A DNA stretch of 64,000 bases, taken from the NCBI RefSeq assembly GCF_964213995.1, contig NC_135806.1:74276001-74340000 (forward strand), written 5' to 3'. The position numbers were made by a program, and so were the translations under genes. The stretch is from Mustelus asterias. Taxonomy: Eukaryota. Positions 4,419 to 63,607 of the stretch are shown here, piece by piece. A model generated the notes under the pieces. The model was given only the letters and a program-made list of their open reading frames with translations, did not search any database and was not told the DNA's origin. How positions within the stretch are numbered: position 1 is the stretch's first letter; the number at the start of each line of letters is the position of its first letter.

Positions 4419-4523
4419 AAAAAAAGTAAGACTATTGGGATGATTAGTAAGTTGAAACTACCATGGTGGTTGACTAAATAAACACACAGATACAATGTAT
4501 AATTAGGCTTAATTTGGAAATTG

Positions 4524-4834
4524 ATAGAATCCCTACAGTGCAGAAGGAGGCCATTCAGCCCATCAAGCCTGCACCGACAATAATCAGGCCCTATCCCTGT
4601 AACCCCTTGTATTTATCCTGCTAATCCCCCTGATACTAATGGTCAATTTAGCATGGGCAATGCACCTAACCTGCACATCTTTGGACTGTGGGAGGAAACC
4701 GGAGCACCCAGAGGAAACCCATGCAGACAGGGGGAGAACGTGCAAACTCCACACAGTCAACCGAGGCCAGAATTGAACCCGGGTCCCTGATGCTGTGAGG
4801 CAGCCGTGCTAACCACTGTGCCACCGTGCTGCCC
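4524..4834 (-). mobile_element. HE1-type SINE
   Basis: Full-length reverse copy. Confidence 0.9.
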
Positions 4835-5289
4835 CTTTAAGGCTCTGGATAATGAAACTTTTTGCACCTTGTGCTCTTACCTATGCTATTGCAAAACATT
4901 GAGTGAGCTTTTGTGCTAGGGGGAGATGATGGAAGAAATTAATTTCAATCATACACAGCAATATTTATGATTGGCTTCTTCTAAAGCTCCAATAAAAAAT
5001 AACTAATGTGGTCCTGCGCCAACAATAAATTTGGAGTAAGTTTTAGAAAAGAAGAAATCTTAGTAATTTGCTGTGAGAGTTGACAGGGAATATCCAGTAT
5101 TCTTTTGTGCTCTGTATGTGGTTACCCTAAAATCGAGTGATTTTTCTTTTGTTAGGCAAGGGAAAAACGTTATAAAACCAAGATGATTATAAGGTACAGA
5201 TCAGCCATGGTGGAAGTGAATGGCTTGAGGGAGTGAACTCATCATGTTCCAATATTCATAGGATGAAAAGTGGATTGAGATGTGCATTT

Positions 5290-10721: not shown

Positions 10722-11000
10722 GGGTGGCACAGTGATTAGCAATGCTGCCTCACAGCTCCAGGGATCTGGATTCAATTCACGCCTTGGGTGACTTTCTCTG
10801 CAGAGTCTGCATGTTCTCCCTGTGTCTGTGTGGGTTTCCTCCGGGTGCTCTGGTTTCCTCCCACAGTCTGAAAGACGTACTGGTTAGGTGCATTGGCCAT
10901 GCTAAATTCTCCCTCAGTACCCGAACAAGCGCCGGAGTGTGGTGACTAGGGGATTTTCACAGTAACTTCATTGCAGTGTTAATGTAAGCATACTTGTGAC
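10722..11000 (+). mobile_element. HE1-head SINE with an alternative 3' tail
   Basis: HE1 head and core followed by gactaggggattttcacagtaacttcattgcagtgttaatgtaagc..cttgtgactaataaa. Confidence 0.85.
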
Positions 11001-24883: not shown

Positions 24884-25160
24884 GGGCAGCATGGTGGTAC
24901 AGTGGTTAGCAGTGCTGTCTCACAACACCAGGGATCTGGGTTCAGTTCCAGCCTTGGGCGACTCTGCAGTTTGCACATTCTCTCTATCTGCATGGGTTTC
25001 CTCCCACACTCCAAAGATGTGCATGTTAGATGGATTTGCCATGCTAATTGCCCCTTACTGTCAGGGGGGATTAGTGGGATTATGGGGCCAGGGACTGATT
25101 GGGATTGTTGGTGCAAGCTCAATGGGCTGAATGGCCTCCTTCTGCACTGTAGGGATTCTG
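24884..25160 (+). mobile_element. HE1-type SINE
   Basis: Head, core and tail as in the other copies. A partial reverse copy lies at 25513-25679. Confidence 0.88.
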
Positions 25161-27346
25161 TTATCTATTAGGGATATAACAAATCATAAATGCTTTTACA
25201 AATGATTTTTTAATAGCTAAAGTAAACAATTTCTTAGAGACAGCTAATATGGGAAATGCAGAAATATCAAATATTGTCTCTATTCACAATAGATTAAATA
25301 AATTACATGCCAGAAATAGCTAGTAACCAAGAGGCTGTTAAGAGAAGAACTTTATTCAATACCATCAGTAGAGATCAAGAATTGGAAAAAAATTGAGGGA
25401 CAAAGGGCCTGCAAATCCTCAACCTTGCAACCTACATTTTAAGATTTGAAAGGTAGTTGCAAGGATAGTGGAGCTATTCCCTAGTTAAGATTATCCAGAA
25501 TTCCCTAAATCCTAGAATCCCTAGAGTACAGAAGGAGGCCATTTGGCCCATTGAGCCTGCACTGACAATGATCCCACCCAGGCCCTATCCCTTTAACCCC
25601 ACACATTTGCCCTGATAATTCCCCTGACATGAGGGCAATTTAGCATGGCCAATCAACCTAACCTGCACATCTTTGGACTCTATTTGAAAGAGGGGGAGAG
25701 AAAACTGGGAAGCATAGCAAAGTTAGCCTGACAGCAATAATCAGAAGCACAAGAATCTATCGAAGTCCTAATATACTAAAAATTAGTTTCATGACAGTCA
25801 ACATAGTTATTTTGAAAGCAATAATTGACAAATTTTAGTTTAGTAAGAATGCAACTGGTATGGTTAATGGGGAGTCAGCAGATGTAATATACCAAAAGGC
25901 ATTGCAAGATACTGAGAGATTAATGTTCATGGAGTGAGTGATAAGACATTGGCATGGGTGGCAGGTTGGTTAACAAAGGAACCAGTGGGGATATATGCAA
26001 CATTTTCAAGTTAGCAGCTTATGGCTGGTGGAGTGCCACAATCGGTACTAGGACCATGGCTATTTACAATCTGTATTACTGAACATGACTTTGACAATGA
26101 AACCAAGGCTATTATATCCAGGTTTGCTGACAATAGAAGCTTAAATGGGATTGTACTCTGAGGAGACAGGCATGTTAAATGTGTGGCCAACAAGCTGGCA
26201 GGTGGGGTATCATGGGGAAGTGAGCTAATTCACTTTTGTAACAAGACAAGGAAGGTATTTGGAAGGGTCATCTAGCTCAACGTTGGCTCAATTCTCTCCC
26301 CACAGATACTGTCAGAGCTGCTGAAATTTTCTGGCATTTTCTATTTTTGTTCCAGCATCCACAGTATTTTGCTTTTATCCAATGATTCTCCCTGGTTATA
26401 CTGGGTGGATTCTCTCAGAATCTTTAAATAGCTGAAGGATGGACTCAGATTCATTGAGTTGTCGGCTTTGCGGATCACAACTGTCTATTTGCAATATTGA
26501 TTTTTGTAGGAAACCTCATGAATGGCTTCCTCTTCCCCATGGCAACATGAAACTCGTTAGCATTTTGTCCTAAATAATGAAGCAGGCTCGTATGGTCTAC
26601 TCCTGTTCCTGTTTCTCATGTTCTTGCTGGCCTAGATTTGATTCCTGGATCCCTAACATCTGAAATCTTGTTATATCCTTCCATGACCAGCGCTATAACA
26701 CTTATCACTCACCTCCCCATGATCCATGCCTTCAGCCATCAGGGCAGTGCTCTAGCATTCTCTCTTCCCTTTTAAAATCCTAATTTAAACCTAGTCACAT
26801 AGATGGGTTTTTGCTTACCTCCTTTACTTGGTCTTATTCCTCTTGGAAGTCTGTTTTTGTTTATGCAAGTTTCTTTAAGGTGTTACATGCAATTTGTTCT
26901 CTTTCTATTCTTGATGCCAATCCAGCATTTATTACCCATGCCTAATGCTTTTGAGAAGATGGTGAACCATTGCAGTAGGTACATCCGTATTGCTGTTGGG
27001 TACTGTTCAATATAAACCCAAGCTTCATAAAACAGACTGCACCTGGGAGTTGTTCGTAGCTTCCTTTATTGTGCTGTATTACTGCCATTCTGCATCTTTA
27101 GTGTTACTATGAAATGGAAAATTTGTCATAGCAACACGACTGCAGTATAAATACCATGAGTGCTAGAACTGTTCTGATTTTTACAATGCTTCATTGCATT
27201 GAATGTTGAATATGATAATGCATGTTTGCAAAATTGTAAATCTGGATAATGTTTACAGTGAACTACAGCATGAATTGCAATTATTTACTATAGATGTCTA
27301 TAACTGCAGAATTCATGTAACTTAAATCACCTATTTGCATTGATAG

Positions 27347-33675: not shown

Positions 33676-34412
33676 GATTTGATTTATTATTGACACATAT
33701 ATTGGGATACAGTGAAAAGTATTGTTTCCTGTGTGCTATACAGACAAAGCATGTTATTCAAGAGTACATAGGGGAGAAGAAAAGGGGGGTGTAGAATATA
33801 ATGTTACAGTCATAGCTAGGGTCTAGAGAAAGATCAGCTTAATATATGGTAGGTCCATTCAAAAGTCAGATGGTATCTGGGAAGAAGCTGTCCTTGAGTC
33901 AGTTGGTACGTGACCAGAGACTTTTGTATCATTTTCCTGACGGAAGAGGGTGCATGAGGTCCTTGATTATGCTGGCTGCTTTGCTGAGACAGCGGGAAGT
34001 GTAGACAGAGTCAATGGATGGGAGGCTGGTTTGCTGATTTGTGATGGACTGAGTTTTGTTCACGACCCTTTGTAGTTTCTTGAGGTGTTGGTCAGAGCAG
34101 GAGCCATACCAAGCTGTGATACGTCCAGAAAGGATGCATTCTATGCTGCATCTGTAAAGGTTGGTGAGCATTGTAGCAGACATGCCAAATTTCCTTAGTC
34201 TTCTGAGAAAGTAGAGGCATTGACCGGCTCTCCTAACTATAGTGTCGGCATGGGGGGACCAGGGCAGGTTGTTGATGATCTGGACACCTAGAAACCTGAA
34301 GCTCTCGACCATTTCCATTTCATCACCACTGATGTAGACAGGAACATGTCCTCCACTTTGCTTCCTGAAGTCGATAATAACCTTTCATTTTACTGACATA
34401 AAGGAAGAGATT
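33676..34412 (-). mobile_element. Rex1/Babar 3' fragment
   Basis: ORF 33929-34318 VESFRFLGV..LYFLRRLRKFGMS. Confidence 0.88.
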
Positions 34413-35136: not shown

Positions 35137-35275
35137 TGTAAGAAGTTTAACAACACCAGGTTAAAGTCCAACAGATTTATTTGGTAGCTACCAAATAAAT
35201 CTGTTGGACTTTAACCTGGTGTTGTTAAACTTCTTACTGTGTTTACCCCAGTCCAACGCCGGCATCTCCACATCA
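35137..35275 (+). mobile_element. PLE-derived fold-back mini-element (same family as 40955-41180), perfect 100-bp palindrome plus tail
   Basis: 35138-35187 is the exact reverse complement of 35188-35237. 38-nt tail at 35238-35275. 12-bp TSD TCTCTTCA(C/T)CTC at 35125-35136 and 35276-35287. Confidence 0.85.
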
Positions 35276-36040
35276 TCTCTTCATCTCCACCAGTGAGTTA
35301 ATGGCTGCTTCTAAAGGCTCATCATCTGGCTGGAGCTGAGTGCTCAGAGCCCTCCAAGTGCTGGAGACCTGGGCTTTCCTTGCCTCTGACTGCTGCGGAG
35401 ATGTGTCTGTGAGGTGCTCCCCAGAAAGTGACCTCGATTCTAACCTTGAGCTATATCCCACCCAGGTGTGTGTCTCTGTGTTGGTGGAGGGTGTGGGTGA
35501 GTATTTTGACTGTTCTTCCTGAGTTCCCTCATCCTTAGATGTGCTTCAGCAGCTTGGAGGGCCACTGGGTTGGCGAGCTGGCTGGCCAGTCTGCTGGTGT
35601 CTGAAAAACACAAAAGGACAATTGTAGTGGATAAGCTGAAGCTAATTTAAATTACATTGTACCTGCTGTGAATTGCAGGATTGCGTGAAGTGATGGGGCT
35701 GAAATCCATACTAGGTTGTTGTGAGACCAAGCCCTGCCACAGGAGCGAACCCTGTCCTCGTGATGACCTTTGCCTTCCCTCTCCCGGTCTGGACTCGCTC
35801 AGGTTTATTGTGTGCGGGTTTGGCCTGTATGGAGATGAAAGAGATGTGATCAGAGTGGATGGAGCAGACTTTGGGTGAAATGCATGTCCCCTGTGTGTGA
35901 TGTGCCCTACCCAGAAGGGACAGAGATTGGAGTGTCAGCAACAAGACAGATAGTGGTGTAGTGAAAGTCTTGGTGAGAGAGTAAGTGTTGATATGTGTCC
36001 CCTGCAATTGAATGTATGAGATCCATGAAGAGTATGGCAT

Positions 36041-36360
36041 GGGCGGCACAATGGTTAGCACTGTTGTCTCACAGCGCCACGGACCTGGGTTCGATTCCCG
36101 GCTTGGGTCACCATCTGTGCAGAGTCTGCACGTTTTCTCCATGTCTCGTGGTTTTCCTTCGGGTGCTCTGGTTTCCTCCCACAGTCCAAAGATGTGCTGG
36201 TTAGGTGCATTGGCCATGATAAGTTGCCACTCAGTGTCAGGGGGATTAGAAGGTTAAATACATGGGGTTACGGGGCTAGGATCTGGATGGGATTGTTATC
36301 AGTGCAGACTCAAAGGGCCAAATGGCTCCTTGTGTACTGTAGGGATTCTATGATTCTATG
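36041..36360 (+). mobile_element. HE1-type SINE (in an intron of the Harbinger Myb gene)
   Basis: Full length, B box ggttcgattccc. Confidence 0.9.
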
Positions 36361-37034
36361 AGTAGCCATTTGAGTACATGATGTCACGCCGAGAGTTTGA
36401 TAACGGAGGGAGCTGAGAGAGGGCTTACCCTGGAGGTGCTGATGAGATCATTCACCTGCTTCTTGCACTGGATGGCACTTTGCAGGCAGGTGGCAGCCAT
36501 GTTGACCACCTGGGCAATGGCCTTCCAGGCTGGAGATTTAAGGTTCAGTTGCTTCTTTGAACTTTCCTTGGGGTACAGAATGTGCTGGTGGCCCAGACTC
36601 CCTGAATAAGCCTTATGGCTAAAAGCTAGTGCTGCCTTCTTCTAGAGGTTACTCACCTTTGGCTTCTGAGTTTCAGATATCCTGCACGGTTTGGTGAAGA
36701 CAGGGTGTGATATTGAGTGTGCTGGACTGGTGTTTAAATATGGTGCAGAGACCCACCAGCTGATGGTGGGTGGATGGATTAGCCGTTGGCCTGCCAAGTA
36801 AGTGACTGGGAGGAGAACACGTCTGCATAATTAGTGAGCTTCCAAGTGCAGATTCTGGCATGGGATCCTGCCATTCTGGGCAACCGGAAAGGCACTGCCA
36901 CAGCTCCCACCACCACACTTAATCTCAAGATGGGAGAATTCCAGCATCAGTCTGAATCACATGATGCATTGCATCATTTTCCCTCTCGTAATGTACAACA
37001 TAACCACACCCACTTAAAGATGTACTGCAAAACC

Positions 37035-40488: not shown

Positions 40489-40954
40489 CCCACTGTCAGC
40501 TGGCTATGCAGCAGATATAGGTGGGCTATAAAAGAGACTCATGATCAAACAGGGAGGCTCTGCACCATGACCAAACGTTCCCTGCCAACTCCATTCCATT
40601 AACATAAGGCTGAGAGCGCAAAGGTGGCACGGATGCTTTTTAAACTTAAGTTTCACCCATAAACATTTTACATTAGATTGGTTTCGTTTTATTCATATGT
40701 GCATCTTCGTTATTTGTTGAGACTAGTTTAGTCAGACAGCTGGCACACCTCATGGTCGCTACATATCGATGATTGCAGGGGAATCAGGAACATTTTTGTC
40801 ATTGTGGAAGAAACAACGTTGTGGGGTTTTTTCACTCTTTATTGAATGTTCATGTTAGTGTTTAGTGTTGTACTCGGCATTCTGTAGGACCTGGCTCAGG
40901 TTCAGGCTCAGCTTTTTTTATTCATTCAAGGGATGTTGGCTTTGCTGGTTAGCC

Positions 40955-41180
40955 ATGATGTGGAGATGCCGGCGTTGGACTGGGGTGGGCGCAGTAAGAA
41001 GTCTCACAACACCAGGTTAAAGTCCAACAGGTTTATTTGGTAGCACAAGCCACAAGCTTTCAGAGCACTGCCTCTTCATCAGGTGAGTCACCTGATAAAG
41101 GGGCAGTGCTCCGAAAGCTTGTGGCTTGTGCTACCAAATAAACCTGTTGGACTTTAACCTGGTGTTGTGAGACTTCTTAT
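40955..41180 (-). mobile_element. Penelope-like (PLE) inverted pseudo-LTR mini-element with hammerhead ribozyme motifs
   Basis: 92-bp arms (40995-41086 and 41088-41179, 3 mismatches), 40-nt unpaired tail at 40955-40994, and 14-bp TSD TT(T/C)GCTGGTTAGCC at 40941-40954 and 41181-41194. Carries CTGATGA...GAAA cores. Confidence 0.8.
41050..41086 (-). ncRNA. Minimal type I hammerhead ribozyme motif (PLE type)
   Basis: Minus strand reads UCAC-CUGAUGA-AGAGGCAGUGCUCU-GAAA-GCUU-GUGG: intact core, helix II hairpin, palindromic helix III (AGCU), and helix I UCAC/GUGG. The mirror copy on + (41088-41124) has CUGAUAA. Confidence 0.6.
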
Positions 41181-41609
41181 TTCGCTGGTTAGCCCAGCAT
41201 TTATTGCCTTTGAGAAGGTGGTGATTTGCTGCCTTCTTGAACCACTGTAGTCCCTGTGGTGTATGTATACCCACAGTGCCGTAGGAGAGGATTTCAACTC
41301 AGCAACAGTGAAGGTACGTTGACGTATTTCCAATTCAGAATGGTGAGTGGATTGGAGGGGAATTTCCCAGTGGTGATGTTCCCATGAATCTGCTGCCTTT
41401 GTCCTCATGGTCCTGGTCATGGGTTATGGAAAGTACTTTCCAAGGAGTTTTGGTGAGTTGCTGCAGTGCATCTTGTAGGTGATACACACTGCTGCTACTG
41501 TGCATTGGTGGTGCAGGGAGTGTATGTTTGTGGAAGGGGTGCCAAACAAGTAGGCTGCTTTGTCCTGGATTCAAACTTCTTGAATGTTGTTTGAGCAGCT
41601 GTCAACTAG

Positions 41610-42504: not shown

Positions 42505-44137
42505 GGGTTCACTAAAGAAAGCCAGCATGGATTTCCTAAAGGAAAATCATGTTTAATTAACTTGCTGGAGCTTTTTGAAGAGGTAACAGAGAGAGTTGAT
42601 GAGGTAACACAGTTGATATGGTGTACATGGACTTCGAAAAGACATGATGACACAATGGTTACCATTGCTGCCTTACAGCACCAGGGACCCAGGTTCAATT
42701 TCGGCCTTGGGTTGCTGTCTGTGTGCAGTTTGCACGTTCTCCCTGTGTTTGCATGATTCCTCCGGGTGCTCTGGTTTCCTCCCACAGTCCAAAGATGTGC
42801 AGGTTAGGTGGATCAACCATGCTAATTTACCCCTTTGTGTCCAAAATGTGTAGGTTAGATGGATTAGCCATGGCAAATGTGCAGGGTCACAGGGGTAGCG
42901 GGGAGATGGGCCTGGGTAATATGCTGTTTTGGAGACTTGGTGAAGACTTGAAGGGCTGAATGGCCTCCTTCTGTACTGCAGGGATTCTATGATTTGATAC
43001 AGCGCCACAAAACAAACATTTGAGCAAAATTATAGCTCATGGAATAAACAAGTCAGTAGCAATATGGATGTGAAATTGGCTGAGTGACAGGAAACAGCGA
43101 GTCGTGGTTAATAGATGTTTTTTGGCTGGAGGAAGGTATCTGACTGGAGTTCCCCAGTGATCAGTGTTGGGACCTTTGCTTTTATTTATTATTAGTGACT
43201 TAGACCTTGGCATACAGGGCACAATTTCAAAATGTGCTGATTATATCTAAGTTGGAAGCATTGGGAACTGTGAGGAGGATAATATAGAACTTCAAAAGGA
43301 TGTAGACAAGTTGGTGGAATTTTTGGATTGGTGACAGATAAAGTTCAATGCAAAAAAATGTGAAGTAATTTATTTTGATAGAAAGAACATGAACAGACAA
43401 TGTAAAATAAAGGGTACAACTCTAAACTGGGTGCAGGAGCCGAGGGACCTGTGTATATATTTGCACAAGTCATTAAATGTGACAGTACAGGTTGAGAGTG
43501 TGGTTAATAAAGCATATAGTATCCTGGGCCTTATTAATAGGAGCTTAGAGTACAAGAGCAAGGAAGTTATGTTGAATTTGTTTAAGCCATTTGTTTGGCC
43601 TGAGCTGGAATATTGCATCCAGTTCTGGGCACCGCACTTTAGCTATTTGCAGAGAGTGTAGAAAAGATTTACGAGAATGGTTACGGGATGAGGAACTTCA
43701 GTTATGAAGATAGAGTGGAGAGCCTTGTTCTCTTCTCCTTGGAGAAGGACGAGAGGAGATTTGACAGAGGTATTCAAAATCATGAAGAGTCTGAACAAAA
43801 CAGATAGGCAAAAACTCTTCCCACTCATGAAAGGATCAAGATCCAGAGAGCAAAGATTAAAGTAATTTGCAAAGTAAGCAAGAGCGATACAAGTAAAAGC
43901 TTTTTCACACAGTGAGTGGTTACGGTCTGGAATGCACTGCCTGAGATTGTCTTGGAAGCAGGTTCAATCGAAACATTCAAAAGGCAAATAGATTGATATT
44001 TGGAATGCAGGAATGTGCAACCTTATGAGGAGCAGGCGCGAGAATGGCACTAAGTGAATTGCTCCTTCAGAGTGCCGGTGCAGACACAATGGGCCAAATG
44101 GCCTCCTTCTGCATTGTAACAATTCTGTGATTCTGTG
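42505..44137 (+). mobile_element. CR1 LINE RT/3' region with a nested HE1 SINE
   Basis: SQHGFPKGKSCLINLLELFEEVT and LEYCIQFWAP motifs, with an attctgtgattctgtg tail. Confidence 0.88.
42649..42993 (+). mobile_element. HE1-type SINE nested in CR1
   Basis: Full length. Confidence 0.88.
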
Positions 44138-44267
44138 TGATCTTAACCAGCCATCGGGATATTGAGATTTTGTATGATTATGTCACTCCACGTATCATGT
44201 TTCCTGCTCTTGCACGCCCCATAAAATTTCACCGAAAACTTCTGATCTACTTATTTCATTAAGTTCA

Positions 44268-45692
44268 GCTGGCGGGGGTAGTTGCAGATATCTTCAACTT
44301 CTCTTTACAACAACCTGAGGTCTCTATCTGCTTCAAGAAGATGACCATCATCCCAGTACCAAAGAAAAGCCAAGCAGCATGCCCTAATGAATATCATCCT
44401 GTGGCTCTGACATCCATCATCATGAAGTGCTTCGAAAGGTTATTCATGGCACGAATCAATTCCAGCCTCCTGGATTGCCTGGATCCACTACAGTTCACCT
44501 ATCGCTGCAACAGGTCCATAGCAGACGCCATCTCCCTGGCCCTGCACTCAATCCTGGAACACCTCGATAACAAAGGCACCTATGTCAGATTCCTATTTAT
44601 TGACTACAGCCTTCAACACTATTATTCCTATGAAACTCATCTCCAAACTCCATGGCCTGGGCCTCAGCTCCTCCTCTGCGACTGGATCCTAAACTTCCTA
44701 ACTCACAGACCACAATCAGTAAGGATAGGCAACAGCACCTCCTCCACGATCATCTTCTACATCGGTGCCCCACAAGGCTGTGTTCTCAGCCCCCTACTAT
44801 ACTCCTTATACACCTATGACCGTGTGGCTAAATTCCTCTCCAACTCGATTTTCAAGTTTGCTGATGACACCACCATAGTGGGTCAGATCTCAAACAATGA
44901 TGAGACAGAGTACAGGAATGAGATAGAGAATCTGGTGAACTGGTGCAGAATCTCTCCCTCAATGTCAACAAAATGAAGGAAATTGTCATCGACTTCAGAA
45001 AGCATAGTGGAGCATATGCCCCTGTCTACATCAATGGGGACGCAGTAGAAATGTTCGAAAGCTTCAAGTTTTTAGGTGTCCAGGTCACCAATAACCTGAC
45101 CTGGTCCCCTCATGCCGACACTATAATTAAGAAAGCCCACCAATGCCTCTACTTTCTCAGAAGACTAAGGAAATTCAGCATGTCAGCTATGACTCTCACC
45201 AATTTTTACAGATATACCATAGAAAGCATTCACCGCTTGGTATGGCTCCTGTTCTACCAAGACTGCAAGAAACTACAAAAGGTTGTGAATGTAGCCCAAT
45301 CCATCACGCAAATCAGCCTCCCATCCATTGACTCTGTGTACATTTCCCATGGTCTCGACAAAGCAGTCAGCATAAATTAAGGACCCCACACAGCCCGGAC
45401 ATACTCTCTTCCACCTTCTTCCGTCGGAAACAAGATACAAAAGTCTGAGGTCACGTACCAACTGACTCAAGAACAGCTTCTTCCCTACTGCCATCAGACT
45501 TTTGAATGGACCTACCTTGCATTTAGTTGATCTTTCTCTACATCCTAGTTCTAGCTATGACTGTAACACTACATTCTGCACTCTCTCATTTCCTTCTCTA
45601 TGAATGGTATGCTTTGTCTGTATTGCACGCAAGAAACAATACTTTTCACTGTATGTTAATACATGTGACAATAATAAATCGAATTAAATCAA
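44268..45692 (+). mobile_element. Rex1/Babar-clade LINE, RT and 3' end (frameshifted)
   Basis: IIPVPKK, PVALTSIIMKCFERL, LDPLQF, GAPQGCVLSPLLYSLYT and FADDTTIVG motifs. 3' end tacatgtgacaataataaatc(aaat)n. Confidence 0.9.
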
Positions 45693-46029: not shown

Positions 46030-46760
46030 TGGCAGAACTCCCAGGAACATTAACATTCAGAGAGATCTGGGTGTGCAGGTCCACAGTTCCCTAAAAGTGA
46101 CAACACAAGTGGCCAAGAAGGTATATGGCATGTTTGCCTTCATTGGCCGGGGCATTGAGTACAAGAGTTAGGAAATCATGACGCAGCTATATAAAACCTT
46201 GGTTAGGCCACATTTTGAGTATTGCATGCAGTTGGGGTGGCACGGTGGCACAGTGGTTAGCACTGCTGCCTCACAGCGCCAGGAACCCGGGTTTCATTCC
46301 CGGCTTGGGTCACTGTCTGTGTGGAGTTTGCACATTCTCCCCTGTCTGCGTGGGTTTCCTCTGGGTGCTCCGGTTTCCTCCCACACTCCAAAGATGTGCG
46401 GGTTAGGTTGATTGGCACTGGTAAATTGACCATAGTGTCAGGGGGATTAGCAGGGTAAATGTGTGGGGTTACGGGAATAGAGCCTGGGTGGGATTGTGGT
46501 CGGTACAGACTTGATGGGCTGAATGGCCTCCTTCTATACTGTGGGGATTCTATGAAAGTTCTGGTCACCACACTACCAGAAGGATGTGGAAGCTTTGGAG
46601 AGAGTGCAAAAAAGCTTCACCAGGATGTTGCCTGGTCTCGAGAGTGTTGGCTATGAGGAGAGGTTGAATAAACTAGGATTGTTTTCACTGGAAAGACGGA
46701 GGCTGAGCAGAGACCTGATAGAGGTCTACAAAATTATGAGAGGCATTGATAGGGTGAATT
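46030..46760 (+). mobile_element. CR1 fragment with a nested HE1 SINE
   Basis: RDLGVQVHSSLK...LVRPHFEYCMQ, then the SINE, then FWSPHYQKD. Confidence 0.85.
46234..46553 (+). mobile_element. HE1-type SINE nested in CR1
   Basis: Full length, flanked by a short agtt duplication. Confidence 0.9.
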
Positions 46761-48496: not shown

Positions 48497-51400
48497 GAAC
48501 AAAGAACAAAGAACAATACAGCACAGGAACAGGCCCTTCGGCCCTCCAAGCCCGCGCCGCTCCCTGGTCCAAACTAGACCATTCTTTTGTATCCCTCCAT
48601 TCCCACTCCATTCATATGGCTGTCTAGATAAGTCTTAAACGTTCCCAGTGTGTCCGCCTCCACCACCTTGCCTGGCAGCGCATTCCAGGCCCCCACCACC
48701 CTCTGTGTAAAATATGTCCGTCTGATATCTGTGTTAAACCTCCCCCCCTTTCTCCTTGGAAAGACGGAGAATGAGGGGAGATCTAATAGAGGTATACAAG
48801 ATTATGAAGGGTATAGATAGGGTGAACAGTGGGAAGCTTTTTCCCAGGTCGGAGGTGACGATCACGAGGGGTCACGGGCTCAAGCTGAGAGGGGCGAAGT
48901 ATAACTCAGACATCAGAGGGATGTTTTTTACACAGAGGGTGGTGGGGGCCTGGAATGCGCTGCCAAGTAGGGTGGTGGAGGCAGGCACGCTGACATCATT
49001 TAAGACTTACCTGGATAGTCACATGAGCAGCCTGGGAATGGAGGGATACAAACGATTGGTCTAGTTGGACCAAGGAGCGGCGCAGGCTTGGAGGGCCGAA
49101 GGGCCTGTTTCCTGTGCTGTACTGTTCTTTGTTCTTTGTTCACCTTGAACCTATGACCCCTCATGAACGTCACCACCGACCTGGGGAAAAGCTTCCCACC
49201 GTTCACCCTATCTATGCCTTTCATAATTTTATACACCTCTATTAAGTCTCCCCTCATCCTCCGTCTTTCCAGGGAGAACAACCCCAGTTTACCCAATCTC
49301 TCCTCATAACTAAGCCCCTCCATACCAGGTAACATCCTGGTAAACCTCCTCTGTACTCTCTCCAAAGCCTCCATGTCCTTCTGGTAGTGTGGCGACCAGA
49401 ACTGGACGCAGTATTCCAGATGCGGCCGAACCAACGTTCTATACATCTGCAACATCAGACCCCAACTTTTATACTCTATGCCCCGTCCTATAAAGGCAAG
49501 CATGCCATATGCCTTCTTCACCGCCTTCTCCACCTGTGACGTCACTTTCAAGGATCTGTGGACTTGCACACCCAGGTCCCTCTGCGTATCTACACCCTTT
49601 ATGGTTCTGCCATTTATCATATAGCTCCTCCCTACATTATTTCTACCAAAATGCATCACTTCGCATTTATCAGGATTGAACTCCATCTGCCATTTCTTTG
49701 CCCAAATTTCCAGCCTATCTATATCCTTCTGTAGCTTCTGACAATGCTCCTCACTATCTGCAAGTCCTGCCAATTTTGTGTCGTCCGCAAACTTACTGAT
49801 CACCCCAGTTCCACCTTCTTCCAGATCATTTATATAAATCACGAACAGCAGAGGTCCCAATACAGAGCCCTGCGGAACACCACTAGTCACAGGCCTCCAG
49901 CCGGAAAAAGACCCTTCCACTACCACCCTCTGTCTTCTGTGACCAAGCCAGTTCTCCACCCATCTAGCCACCTCCCCCTTTATCCCATGAGGTCCAACCT
50001 TTTTCACCAGCCTACCACGAGGGACTTTGTCAAACGCTTTACTAAAGTCCATATAGACGACATCCACGGCCCTTCCCTCGTCAACCATTTTGGTCACTTC
50101 TTCAAAAAACTCCACCAGGTTAGTGAGGCATGACCTCCCTCTCACAAAACCATGCTAACTATCGTTAATGAGTTTATTCCTTTCTAAATGCGCATACATC
50201 CTATCTCTAAGAATCTTCTCCAACAACTTCCCCACCACGGACGTCAAGCTCACCAACCTATAATTACCCGGGTTATCCTTCCTACCCTTCTTAAATAACG
50301 GGACCACATTAGCTATCCTCCAATCCTCTGGGACCTCACCTGCGTCCAGTGACGAGACAAAGATTTGCGTCAGAGGCCCAGCGATTTCATCTCTCGTCTC
50401 CCTGAGCAGCCTTGGATAGATTCCATCAGGCCCTGGGGATTTGTCAGTCTTTAAATTCTCTAACAAACCTAACACTTCCTCCTTTGTAATGGAGATTTTC
50501 TCCAACGGTTCAACACTCCCCTCCGAGACACTCCCAGTCAACACATCCCTCTCCTTTGTGAATACCGACGCAAAGTATTCATTTAGGATCTCCCCTACTT
50601 CTTTGGGCTCCAAGCATAATTCCCCACTTTTGTCCCTGAGAGGTCCGATTTTTTCCCTGACAACCCTTTTGTTCCTAACGTATGAATAAAATGCCTTGGG
50701 ATTCTCCTTAATCCTGTCTGCCAAGAACATTTCGTGACCCCTTTTTGCTCTTCTAATTCCCCGTTTGAGTTCTTTCCTACTTTCTTTGTACTCCTCCAGA
50801 GCTCCCTCCGTTTTTAGCTGCCTGGACCTACCATACGCCTCTCTTTTCTTTTTGACCAGTCCCTCAATTTCCCTGGTTATCCACGGTTCTCGAATCCCAC
50901 CCTTCCTATCCTTCTTTTTAACAGGCACATGCCTGTCCTGTAGCCCTAACAACTGTTCCTTAAAAGACTCCCACATGCCAGATGTGGATTTACCCTCAAA
51001 CAGCCTCTCCCAATCAAGAGCTGCCAATTTCTGCCTAATCCCACTAAAGTTAGCCTTCCCCCAATCCAACACCTTACCCTTGGGACACCACTCATCCTTT
51101 TCCATCACTATCCTAAAGCTAACAGAATTGTGGTCACTATTTGCCACATGTTCCCCTACCGAAACTTTGAAGACCTGACCGGGCTCATTCCCCAGTACGA
51201 GGTCCAGTATAGCCCCCTCTCTAGTCGGGCTATCTACATATTGTTCCAAAGAACCCTCCTGTACGCATTTTACAAATTCCTCCCCATTCAGAGTCCCTGC
51301 TCTCAGCGATTTCCAGTCTATACCAGGGAAATTGAAGTCTCCCACTACAACAACCCTATTTTTCCTGCACCTATCCAGTATCTCCTGACATATCCGTTCT

Positions 51401-51682
51401 TCCACTTCCCTTGGGCTGTTGGGGGGCCTGTAGTACACCCCCAACATAGTGACTGCGCCCTTCCTGTTTCTAAGCTCCACCCAGAGTGACTCGTTACACG
51501 ACCTCTCTGAATTGTCCTCCCTCTGCACCGCTGTAATATGCTCTCCAACTAATACTGCTACTCCCCCACCTCTTTTGGCCCCTCCTCTGTCTCGCCTAAA
51601 ACACTTGTACCCCGGAATATTCAGCTGCCAGTCCTGTCCCTCTTTCAACCAAGTCTCTGTCACCGCAACCACATCCAAATTC
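48497..51682 (-). mobile_element. Young CR1-clade LINE (HER1-like), 5'-truncated, near-complete ORF2 (APE endonuclease + RT)
   Basis: ORFs 50155-51732 and 49141-50145 are in one frame, separated by a single TAG (DS*HGFVRGRSC). Motifs ETWL, YRPP, GDFN, SDH, PQGSVLGP, FADD. (GTTCTTT)n 3' end at 48497. Confidence 0.95.
48751..49140 (+). mobile_element. 5'-truncated CR1/HER1 copy nested antisense inside the larger copy
   Basis: ORF2 C-terminus ERRRMRGDLIEVYKIMKG and gttctttgttctttgtt tail. It splits the host sequence ccccccctt/caccttgaacc. Confidence 0.9.
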
Positions 51683-51809
51683 CTCGTGGTTCTCTTTATG
51701 CACATAATTTGTCTTACATAACTGTTCTCCACTTACTGCATTTTGCTGGATAAATAATCTTGCTTTTATTAGAAGTCTGCTGCAATTTTGGTCACTTAAA
51801 AAAATAACT

Positions 51810-53567: not shown

Positions 53568-53871
53568 GGGCGGCACAGTGGTTAGCACTGCTACCTCACA
53601 GCACCAGGGACCCGAGTTCAATTCCAGCCCTGGGTGACTGTCTGTGTGGAGTTTGCACATTCTCCCTGTGTCTGCGTGGGTTTTCTGAGTGCTCCAGTTT
53701 CCTCCCACACTCCAAAGATGTGCAGGTTAGGTTGATTGGCCATGCTAAATTGCCCCTTTGTGTCAGGTAGATTAGCAGAGTAAATATGTGGGGTAATGGG
53801 GATAGGGCCCCGGTGGGATTGCCGGTGCAGGCTCAATGGGCCAAATAGCCTCTTTCTGCAGGGATTCTATG
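53568..53871 (+). mobile_element. HE1-type SINE
   Basis: Full length. Confidence 0.9.
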
Positions 53872-54309
53872 AAAATTTCATCCTGTTTGTGTGTCTGATC
53901 AGGGGCTGGGGTCCTAGTTGATTCCAACTTCCCTGCCCTCGCCAAATAATGGTTCAGCTTATTAATACCACTACTGAAAATTCAGTTGAGGTTAGTTAAC
54001 ATTGATTTCTGTTTCTCCTGATTTTGTTTTTGCTATTTTTAGTTTAAAAGACCAGGAATAACCTTTTATAAGTATAAGAGCTAAATCAGATCAGTCGGAA
54101 TAATTAAAATGCACTGTTTGGAGGATATTTTCAGAATATTTCAAAAGAAACCTATTTGATGAGAAAATAACTTGCACTTTACAACCTCAGAGCATCAGAA
54201 ATACCTCAGACATTGTACTTTTTAAAGTGGTCACTTGTGTAGGGAAACACTGGTAGTCAATTTGCACATCAGGTCTGACAAAGTCATTATGTAAGTTAAT
54301 ACCTCATTG

Positions 54310-55300: not shown

Positions 55301-55830
55301 TTAGAATCCCTACAGTACAGAAGGAGGACACTCAGCACATCTAACCTGCACTGACAACAATCCCACCAAGGCCCCATAACACCACCTATTTACCCTGCTA
55401 ATCTCCCTGACACTAAGGGGCAATGTAGTATGGCCAATCAACCTAACCCGCACATCTTTGGACTGTGGGAGGAAACCGGAGCACCCAAAGGTATATTGGA
55501 ATGGCCATTAAGGGGTGGCACGGTGGCACAATGGTTAACGCTGCTGCCTCACAGCACCAGGGACTCGGGTTCAATTCCAGCCTTGGTCACTATGTGGAGT
55601 TTGCACCTTCTCCCCATGTCTGCGTGGGTTTCCTCTGGGCGCTCTGGTTTCTTCCCACAGTCCAAAGATGTGCGGGTTAGGTTGATTGGTCATGCTAAAT
55701 TGACCCTAGTGTCAGTAAAATTAACAGGATAAATGTGTGGGGTTACAGGAATAGAGTATGGATGGGATTGTGGTCGGTCCAGACTTGATGGGCTGAATGG
55801 CCTCCTTCCGCACTAGGGATTCCATGATTC
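55301..55830. mobile_element. Two divergent HE1 SINEs (55301-55486 on -, 55512-55830 on +)
   Basis: Adjacent copies in opposite orientation. Confidence 0.88.
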
Positions 55831-56499
55831 TAGTGTATGGATTGCTGTTAATTGCCAAAAGCTCACCAGTCTTTCTGTATTTTTTTACTTTGCAGTTTAA
55901 AAAAAAACATGCTACTAATTATGGTCCCTACCTAATGCAAAGAAAAATGGGTTCATTGTTGGCAAGAATGTTCTACCTTTGTCAACTGTCATGTGTTTTA
56001 AAAGAAACCAGGGGTGGAAAGCACAAACAAGTTTCTGCCTTAACAGACACCTTGAAATATCCATGTTTACCAAGATTTCAAAGTGTTAATCTTATCAAAG
56101 ATAGTTGTAAGGAATCTGAAGGGAAGAAAGTTTTTTTTAAAAGGCAGTCAGTAAGCTCACATTTGTGTATTATTTCATGTTCAAAAATCTAGCAGTCTTG
56201 TCTTAATCTTGCTTGAATTAACACGTACTATGTACTTTGACCAAAGAGTAAAATGTTACCAGTAAGCACGTGGTTGAATCTGTTCTAGCATTTTGCTACA
56301 TGGTTCAGGTATCTGATTTCATTTGCATTTGATTCAAAGTCCAGTATTCAATATATTTCCCTTATTGAGAAAAGATTACTTTATTACCTTGCAGGTTTTG
56401 GCCCTGATATATGTCTATAACAGTCACTCCCCCTCAATTTCATAATGAGCAACTGTTTGTCAGGGATTCAGGAGAGACCTGGGAATCCACTCCCCATAC

Positions 56500-63206: not shown

Positions 63207-63607
63207 CATAGAAATCATAGAAACCCTACAGTGCAGAAGGAGGCCATTCGGCCCATCGAGTCTGCACTGACCACAATCCTACCCAGGCCCCCAGATTTGG
63301 GATTAAATCTATGGTTTGCCATAGAATCCCTACTGTGCAGAAGGAGGCCATTTGGCCCACTGAGCCTGCACTGATGATAATTCCACCCAGGCCCTATCCC
63401 CATAACCTGTATTTACCCTACTAATCCCCCTGATGTTAAGGAGCAATTTTAGCAAGGCCAACCAACCTAACCCACACATTTTTGGATTGTGGAAGGAAAC
63501 TCACGCAGACACGGGGAGAATGTACAAATTTCACACGCACAGTCACCCAAGGCCGGAATGGAACCCGGGTCCCTGGCACTGTGAGGCAGCAGTGCTAGCC
63601 ACTGTGT
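63207..63607 (-). mobile_element. HE1 SINE (63320-63607) plus an extra tail fragment (63207-63290)
   Basis: Reverse copies. Confidence 0.88.

Follow-up and report, generated by a model that had tools for sequence, protein, structure and literature searches.

What kind of element leaves behind a 226-bp insertion that folds back on itself and carries hammerhead ribozyme motifs on both strands? The insertion in question lies in a stretch of 64,000 nucleotides from Mustelus asterias (NCBI RefSeq assembly GCF_964213995.1, contig NC_135806.1, positions 74,276,001 to 74,340,000; hereafter the window, in whose numbering its positions are given). It resembles the hairpin of a miniature DNA transposon (MITE). 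However, an initial annotation attributed it to target-primed retrotransposition, and considered it to be either an extreme truncation product of a Penelope-like element (PLE) or a protein-free, retrozyme-like RNA element. We find that it is almost certainly a PLE insertion product. As a single object it is ordinary, being one short, damaged stub among very many that a PLE has left, and neither the element nor its architecture is new in kind, since head-to-head PLE insertions have already been published.

Structure of the Insertion

Recomputation reproduced the layout that had been claimed for the insertion, which is a 185-bp palindrome centered on 41087 whose 92-bp arms (40995-41086 and 41088-41179) carry three mismatches (41077/41097, 41073/41101, and 41062/41112), with an unpaired tail of 40 nt (40955-40994) on one side only. 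The palindrome is not a product of chance, because the insert folds with z = -25 and none of 200 shuffled sequences is equally stable. The 14-bp direct repeat surrounding the insert, whose copies (40941-40954 and 41181-41194) are identical at 13 of 14 positions, is indeed a target-site duplication, because the flanks read through as a continuous older repeat once the insert and one repeat copy are removed (14 alignments to 13 other loci). The parts of the insertion and other features of the window are collected in Table 1.

Table 1. Positions of the insertion, its parts, and other repeats in the window
Feature	Position	Strand	Remarks
Target-site duplication, left copy	40941..40954	+	14 bp, within older repeat; from flank alignments
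PLE tail	40955..40993	-	39 nt; minus-strand end is the ATG that opens the ORF of full-length copies
Tail-bearing arm	40994..41088	-	PLE 3' end (part of pLTR) in minus-strand sense; first base is the initiator-like A at 41088
Minimal type I hammerhead	41050..41086	-	Intact core, but G.U and A.C damage in helix II; cut predicted after 41054
Head-to-head junction	41083..41091	.	27-nt junction pattern has 631 exact matches genome-wide
Tail-less arm	41088..41179	+	Inverted second copy of the same PLE end
Minimal hammerhead	41088..41124	+	C3-G8 pair lost through G8>A at 41097; cut predicted after 41120
Target-site duplication, right copy	41181..41194	+	
Second head-to-head PLE insertion	35138..35276	+	Other subfamily; 51-nt arms, one tail, 12-bp duplication
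300-350 bp repeat, first five copies	2145-2501, 4521-4843, 10722-10918, 24884-25171, 36037-36362		
300-350 bp repeat, further five copies	42648-42995, 46234-46556, 53568-53873, 55504-55832, 63321-63607		

The second head-to-head insertion in the window folds short of the hammerhead and is thus without a ribozyme. Two long frames of 384 and 525 aa, separated by a stop, occupy 49000-51732 on the minus strand and presumably correspond to the endonuclease and reverse transcriptase (RT) parts of a CR1-like LINE, which they resemble. Fragments of a second LINE-like RT family are present at 44263-45380 (plus strand) and 33929-34384 (minus strand), and a SINE-sized repeat of 300-350 bp has at least 10 copies in the window at 70-85% identity.

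A Parent Element with Reverse Transcriptase and GIY-YIG Motifs

A 20-mer from the arm has 99,284 exact matches on the plus strand and 98,871 on the minus strand of the 3.68-Gb genome (198,155 in total), and the reversed 20-mer, used as a control, has none. The family would therefore comprise approximately 100,000 insertions genome-wide, as an order of magnitude. Copies picked by their tail alone have many different centers, some extend for hundreds of bases, and one reaches the end of an ORF on the strand that carries the hammerhead in its sense orientation. A genome query with the peptide from this ORF end returned 82,745 candidates, of which 150 were scored. Among 523 distinct arms, 139 continue into the end of an ORF for RT and GIY-YIG domains, which upholds the PLE origin that had been proposed.

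The ORF of three long copies (L181, L182, and L192) contains an RVT_1 domain, a DKG motif, and a CX4CxxC linker, and its end is GIY-YIG-like. The arm is the terminus of full PLEs, a point that the annotation had proposed to check. RVT_1 was detected in two long copies with E values of 8.6e-9 and 1.1e-7. In translation, the ORF reads GLNF (a GxKF/Y-like motif), PADKGG, and the RT motifs, as is typical of a single-ORF PLE, as well as VVY...C..C...YIG and then R, H, E, and N motifs, which is the pattern of a GIY-YIG/CCHH endonuclease. A Pfam search of the long-copy ORFs gave no GIY-YIG match, no relatives of the protein were found among solved structures, and a single-sequence structure model (pLDDT 35.8) was too poor for use. 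Two atlas hits (0.96 and 0.95) belong to clusters in which 31% and 18% of the members carry PF01541.

Direct and inverted copies of this arm delimit the ORF of the long copies, and in those of full length the tail stops at the ORF's ATG. These copies show the pLTR from a partial tandem, the inverted truncated copy, the one-sided tail of 30-40 bp, and the variable duplication that mark a PLE. By the motif definitions in the available part of PMC8557442, where a CX2-5CxxC linker characterizes the Neptune/Nematis type, the parent is classed on its sequence as a C-terminal endonuclease-bearing (EN+) PLE of this type, with the linker in CX4CxxC form in all three long copies. It would be Neptune rather than Nematis according to the host range described in the accessible text of bioRxiv 10.64898/2026.07.22.740005.

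One full-length copy (L181, 1128-5739) has an ORF that is broken near its start by a LINE-like fragment on the opposite strand. A subfamily represented at L068, L253, L255, L260, L288, and L289 has a longer 3' region, of 387 nt, and its ribozyme region is identical in 12 arms, which suggests recent activity.

Hammerhead Motifs in This Copy and in the Family

The hammerhead in this insertion is the ribozyme of the parent element's own pLTR, carried along with the arm. The minus-strand CUGAUGA (41082-41076) and GAAA (41061-41058) elements are located where they had been annotated, as are the predicted cuts at 41054 (minus strand) and 41120 (plus strand) and the G8>A change in the plus-strand copy. 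The minus-strand copy had also been described as intact. This description holds for the core but not for the ribozyme, given that helix II is damaged: a G.U pair replaces the conserved G10.1-C11.1 pair, and an A.C mismatch adjoins it. Neither arm combines an intact core with an intact helix II, and an Rfam scan of the insertion revealed no hammerhead match at E values up to 10, only sub-threshold hits to microRNA-like hairpins. Furthermore, a read-through transcript is predicted to form one long hairpin in which both motifs are buried and the ribozyme helices have a probability of 0.0, in agreement with a caution in the initial annotation. Judging from these data, both hammerheads of this copy are damaged, and we predict that the copy is inactive.

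At the family level, the claim of a genuine minimal type I hammerhead motif is sustained. The motif could be parsed in 138 of the 139 ORF-linked arms, although these arms are related and were partly chosen through the protein search, such that the counts are not independent. Core positions are conserved in 128-138 of the 138 arms, including a G at position 8 in 134, and helix III is palindromic. Variation is seen where hammerheads tolerate it, at N7 (C in 71, U in 34, A in 33) and at position 17, or H17 (U in 92, A in 33, C in 12, G in 1). The helices covary, with the first pair of helix I being C-G in 65 arms and U-A in 64. This variation is a pattern across subfamilies rather than a series of independent events.

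The distribution of arm ends may also report on ribozyme action by the parent. In one subfamily, a purine immediately precedes the cut site in 1,904 arms, compared to 485 one base upstream, which served as a single control position. Five sampled arms start at the cut, versus at most two at each of three neighboring positions. Such ends would be an indirect sign that the parent ribozyme cleaves in vivo, and they say nothing about this copy. At L092, L265, L266, and L287, both arms start at or within one base of the predicted ribozyme cut, in some cases with filler DNA between them.

Geometry of the Family

The initial annotation proposed that copies be tabulated by fold point, tail, and duplication. 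We did so in a sample unbiased with respect to fold point, in which the window and 69 arbitrarily chosen stretches of 10 kb were combined with the first 100 matches to the 20-mer on the plus strand. This sample yielded 262 arms, which form 88 head-to-head pairs and leave 86 arms unpaired owing to stretch edges, later insertions, or single arms. Pair statistics are based on 87 pairs, with the insertion in the window itself left out.

Exactly one tail is present in 83 of these 87 pairs, and two tails are present in none. A duplication accompanies 71 of the 87 pairs and measures 12-14 bp in 55 of the 71; the duplications range from 9 to 18 bp and have no fixed sequence. For pairs defined by geometry, a good duplication was observed in 63 of 80, compared to 1 of 238 mismatched flanks. 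Arms have a median length of 122 nt (at most 150 nt in 142 of 253, at least 1,000 nt in 15 of 253), and the fold points across the family vary widely and form a continuum.

The two arms of a pair are not independent of each other. Their lengths are correlated (Spearman 0.69), and partner arms agree within 10 nt in 36 of 80 pairs, whereas 10,000 permutations gave a mean of 6.1 and a maximum of 15. Partners are also mutually alike, with a median of 0.975 against 0.81 to other copies, and an arm's own partner is its best or tied match in 27 of 48 cases. The 3' ends of the 262 arms are bimodal, with 122 at 0-4 nt and 85 at 36-41 nt. Of the 76 one-tail pairs, 24 have a tail-less arm that exceeds the tail-bearing arm in length. 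Two loci (L170, 1619-1750, and L264) consist of a lone tail attached to a long arm in inverted orientation, similar to an L1 inversion formed by twin priming.

Arm Ends at a Putative Capped RNA Start

Arm 5' ends gather at an initiator-like A, with a spread over approximately 4-10 nt upstream of the ribozyme core. Both halves of the insertion in the window end at this family-wide pile-up, and the annotation had given the end point without recognizing that it lies there. In the tail arm, a G comes before the initiator-like A. In the subfamilies that show the pile-up, the base before this A is C in 65 of 65 long arms, and 34 of the 65 (36 with any match) have a TATA-like box that begins 30-32 nt upstream of it, which is the spacing of a TATA box and an initiator. 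A TTATAA variant is present in several further long arms, whereas none of the 68 long arms of the other main subfamily has a TATA-like box. Ends within 10 nt of the ribozyme core were found for 22 of 105 arms versus 6 of 98 TATA-less arms (p 0.002), under noisy subfamily labels: on visual inspection, 2 of the 22 proved to lie on the wrong strand and 3 of the 6 to be of the other type.

Genome-wide, the base before the initiator-like A is the reference C in 70,800 matches, G in 4,631, and A or T in 2,003. A accounts for 41 of the first 100 A/T matches listed, which gives a G:A ratio of approximately 5.6 to 1. The G excess is absent or weak in two controls, each judged from the first 100 matches listed: G:A is 10:11 four bases downstream, and the homologous base of the TATA-less subfamily gives 26:17. 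Of 30 G arms inspected, 29 end at the initiator-like A. A splice site was considered as the cause of the pile-up but discarded on the grounds that each of the 30 loci has its own sequence ahead of the G. The G has no evident template in 14 of these loci, and in 15 it could have come from the partner arm or the target by a loose test. Because these 15 can be read from partner or target, part of the G excess may represent microhomology. Among whole palindromes the pile-up is modest, with 8,370 in the size bin of this copy compared to 6,634 and 6,026 in the two preceding 30-nt bins and 5,127 in the next. The pile-up of arm ends with a non-reference G suggests run-off at a capped RNA start.

The same PLE could have produced these ends in another way, if the front edge of the hammerhead fold caused RT to pause or drop off, with the G arising by microhomology joining rather than from a cap. 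Such pausing is in keeping with a pile-up located just 5' of helix I, with ends scattered over several bases, and with the G junctions that partner or target could template. However, it does not readily explain the 14 junctions that lack an evident template or the disappearance of the G excess four bases away. Moreover, little pile-up or G excess is seen in the TATA-less subfamily, even though its ribozyme fold is the same and its partner strand is just as rich in G. Thus, we consider pausing an unlikely source of these ends, though one to be taken seriously.

A Proposed Mechanism for Head-to-Head Insertion

We judge it probable, with real room for doubt, that the insertion consists of short 3'-end copies of an endonuclease-bearing PLE that were laid down head-to-head in one event, with both target strands primed and with run-off at the capped 5' end of the RNA. 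In this scheme, the initiator-like A downstream of the TATA-like box would be the first base of the PLE RNA, and both cut target strands would prime reverse transcription on one RNA in a single insertion event. Copying would begin approximately 95 and 134 nt downstream of the RNA start, beside the ATG of the ORF, and the cDNAs would be short because they begin so close to that start. The RNA 5' end, whether capped, cut by the ribozyme, or broken, would halt both cDNAs. The extra G would reflect a C incorporated opposite the cap, and the two cDNA ends could then anneal over a 5-nt near-palindrome with one central mismatch to give exactly this junction.

Our own evidence comprises the family, the ORF link, the single tail, the duplications of 12-14 bp, the coupled arm lengths, and the G-bearing pile-up. 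Priming of both strands on one RNA is the simplest account of the bimodal 3' ends, the coupled arm lengths, and the likeness of partner arms. Available portions of the literature add two points. In vitro, both strands of the target are nicked and extended by a PLE protein, copying begins at a pair of internal RNA positions that mark the limits of the tail, and insertion is independent of ribozyme cleavage (PMC11167929). In full-length L1 and SVA, the cap G is reverse-transcribed (PMC2912911). A point against a TATA-directed start is the Penelope promoter of D. virilis, which the accessible text of PMC2377424 reports to be TATA-less and internal. Our searches of the open-license literature yielded no description of cap run-off or twin priming for PLEs.

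A second priming event on RNA would be needless if a single cDNA folded back and primed itself, such that the same enzyme copied the mirror arm, as has been proposed for PLE palindromes (PMC3846280, in the part available). The close likeness and frequently equal length of partner arms are as expected for this process. However, a simple fold-back from the tail arm is disfavored because a longer tail-less arm, as seen in almost a third of the one-tail pairs, requires a later central loss, and in two loci the tail stands alone. In addition, the second arm has a fixed end point at the tail border, which corresponds to the second of the RT start sites in the accessible portion of PMC11167929. Therefore, self-priming appears improbable, even though twin priming and a fold-back followed by central loss cannot be told apart here.

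It is also quite possible, at somewhat less than an even chance, that short PLE palindromes in general are a record of transposition. These would form by two-strand priming at the tail borders of the 5' pLTR copy, with run-off either at the cap, as for this copy, or at the hammerhead cut, a class with approximately 1,400 excess ends in one subfamily.

Probable Recurrent Formation of the Junction

An exact junction that is common to 631 copies might be expected of a protein-free element that propagates itself as RNA with ribozymes in both polarities, as in the second origin proposed initially. The center base of the junction is likewise skewed, with 12 G and 2 C among 14 one-tail matches oriented with the tail on the left, which counts against a symmetric process because random mismatch repair would give an even split. 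However, among the first 100 of the 631 matches, 40 have both arms from the N7=A subfamily and 54 have both arms from others, whereas only 6 are mixed. The G8>A change of this copy is present in just 2 of the 200 arms of these matches. It was rejected as a mark of a fold-back lineage on account of this rarity and because the best matches had been selected by similarity to the query.

We also constructed a tree (97 columns, weak support) in which 24 junction arms were placed with 36 ORF-linked arms; 3 of 15 junction matches were left out of it as they are not two-armed. Junction arms are interleaved with ORF-linked arms through 9 label changes, and none of 200 bootstrap trees groups the junction arms together with a single change, although the well-supported branches taken alone are compatible with a single origin. 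The better reading is that the identical junction formed repeatedly from different masters.

Other features are equally at odds with a retrozyme. The insertion is a single head-to-head unit rather than a set of head-to-tail tandem repeats that each carry a ribozyme, both of its ribozymes are damaged, and its transcript would be locked in one hairpin. Neither a lineage of its own nor a fixed monomer is apparent, given the continuum of fold points and the presence of the junction in several ORF-bearing subfamilies. Thus, the self-propagating retrozyme-like reading is largely refuted, and the insertion is most likely not such an element; we regard this origin as very unlikely. The other origin first proposed, an extreme PLE truncation product, was right in kind, as this is a short PLE product. 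A MITE derived from a DNA transposon, which the long terminal inverted repeats call to mind, can be dismissed almost outright together with a fixed monomer, because the sampled copies have variable centers, one tail, continuity with an RT ORF, and duplications of 9-18 bp without fixed sequence in place of fixed termini and a fixed short duplication, and the target-primed insertion envisaged at the outset stands.

Relation to Known Systems

The comparisons that follow draw on the available portions of the papers cited. Published complex insertions of EN+ PLEs (PMC8557442, PMC3846280, and PMC2377424) likewise include a head-to-head inverted pLTR arrangement with an inverted 5'-truncated copy, a one-sided tail of 30-40 bp, a variable duplication, and heavy 5' truncation. 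The insertion described here differs in its minimal size of 226 bp, and the duplications are 12-14 bp compared to 8-10 bp in the rotifer paper. The 5'-end pile-up and the extra G measured here are unmentioned in the accessible text of these three papers.

The minimal hammerheads of metazoan PLE pLTRs (PMC4209133) share with this family a short helix I, an extra base between positions 9 and 10.1, the G10.1-C11.1 pair, a palindromic 15.2-16.2 pairing, and covariation among subfamilies. Dual hammerheads on opposite strands, 100-700 bp apart, are known from Schistosoma (PMC4209133). Unlike the hammerheads in that report, the motifs of this copy are damaged, and the family shows an excess of starts at the cut site. 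Non-LTR retrozymes (PMC7229834 and bioRxiv 10.64898/2026.07.22.740005) are also small, non-coding, and PLE-derived, and carry a type I hammerhead. However, they are head-to-tail tandem repeats of 170-400 nt that are expressed as circles, whereas here a single head-to-head insertion has a variable center.

The anole PLE PAc (PMC11167929) has the same arrangement of two internal RT starts that delimit a tail near the ORF start. Its protein cuts and extends both target strands, and the ribozyme is dispensable in vitro. PAc belongs to a different clade, Penelope/Poseidon, whereas the ORF here has the CX4CxxC linker. The tail ends at the ATG here but inside the ORF in PAc, and run-off at a capped start in genomic copies is not discussed for PAc in the available portion of that paper. 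L1 twin priming (PMC2912911) is similar in that both target ends prime on RNA, the products are joined by microhomology, and a 5' G derives from the cap. However, the inverted part of an L1 insertion copies a different upstream stretch, whereas both arms here copy the same one.

Implications for PLE Transposition

The statistics of this family bear on how PLEs generate their inverted repeats and one-sided tail, a process described as undefined in the accessible literature. They also bear on whether the minimal hammerhead of PLEs cuts in vivo, a question for which the available part of PMC11167929 reports that no RNA reads were found at the hammerhead cut. If arm ends mark a capped start and a ribozyme cut, then thousands of stubs would constitute a directly testable model. 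This would explain how a retroelement leaves hairpins that look like MITEs, and such insertions would map both the promoter of a PLE and the cleavage of its ribozyme in vivo from genomic sequence alone.
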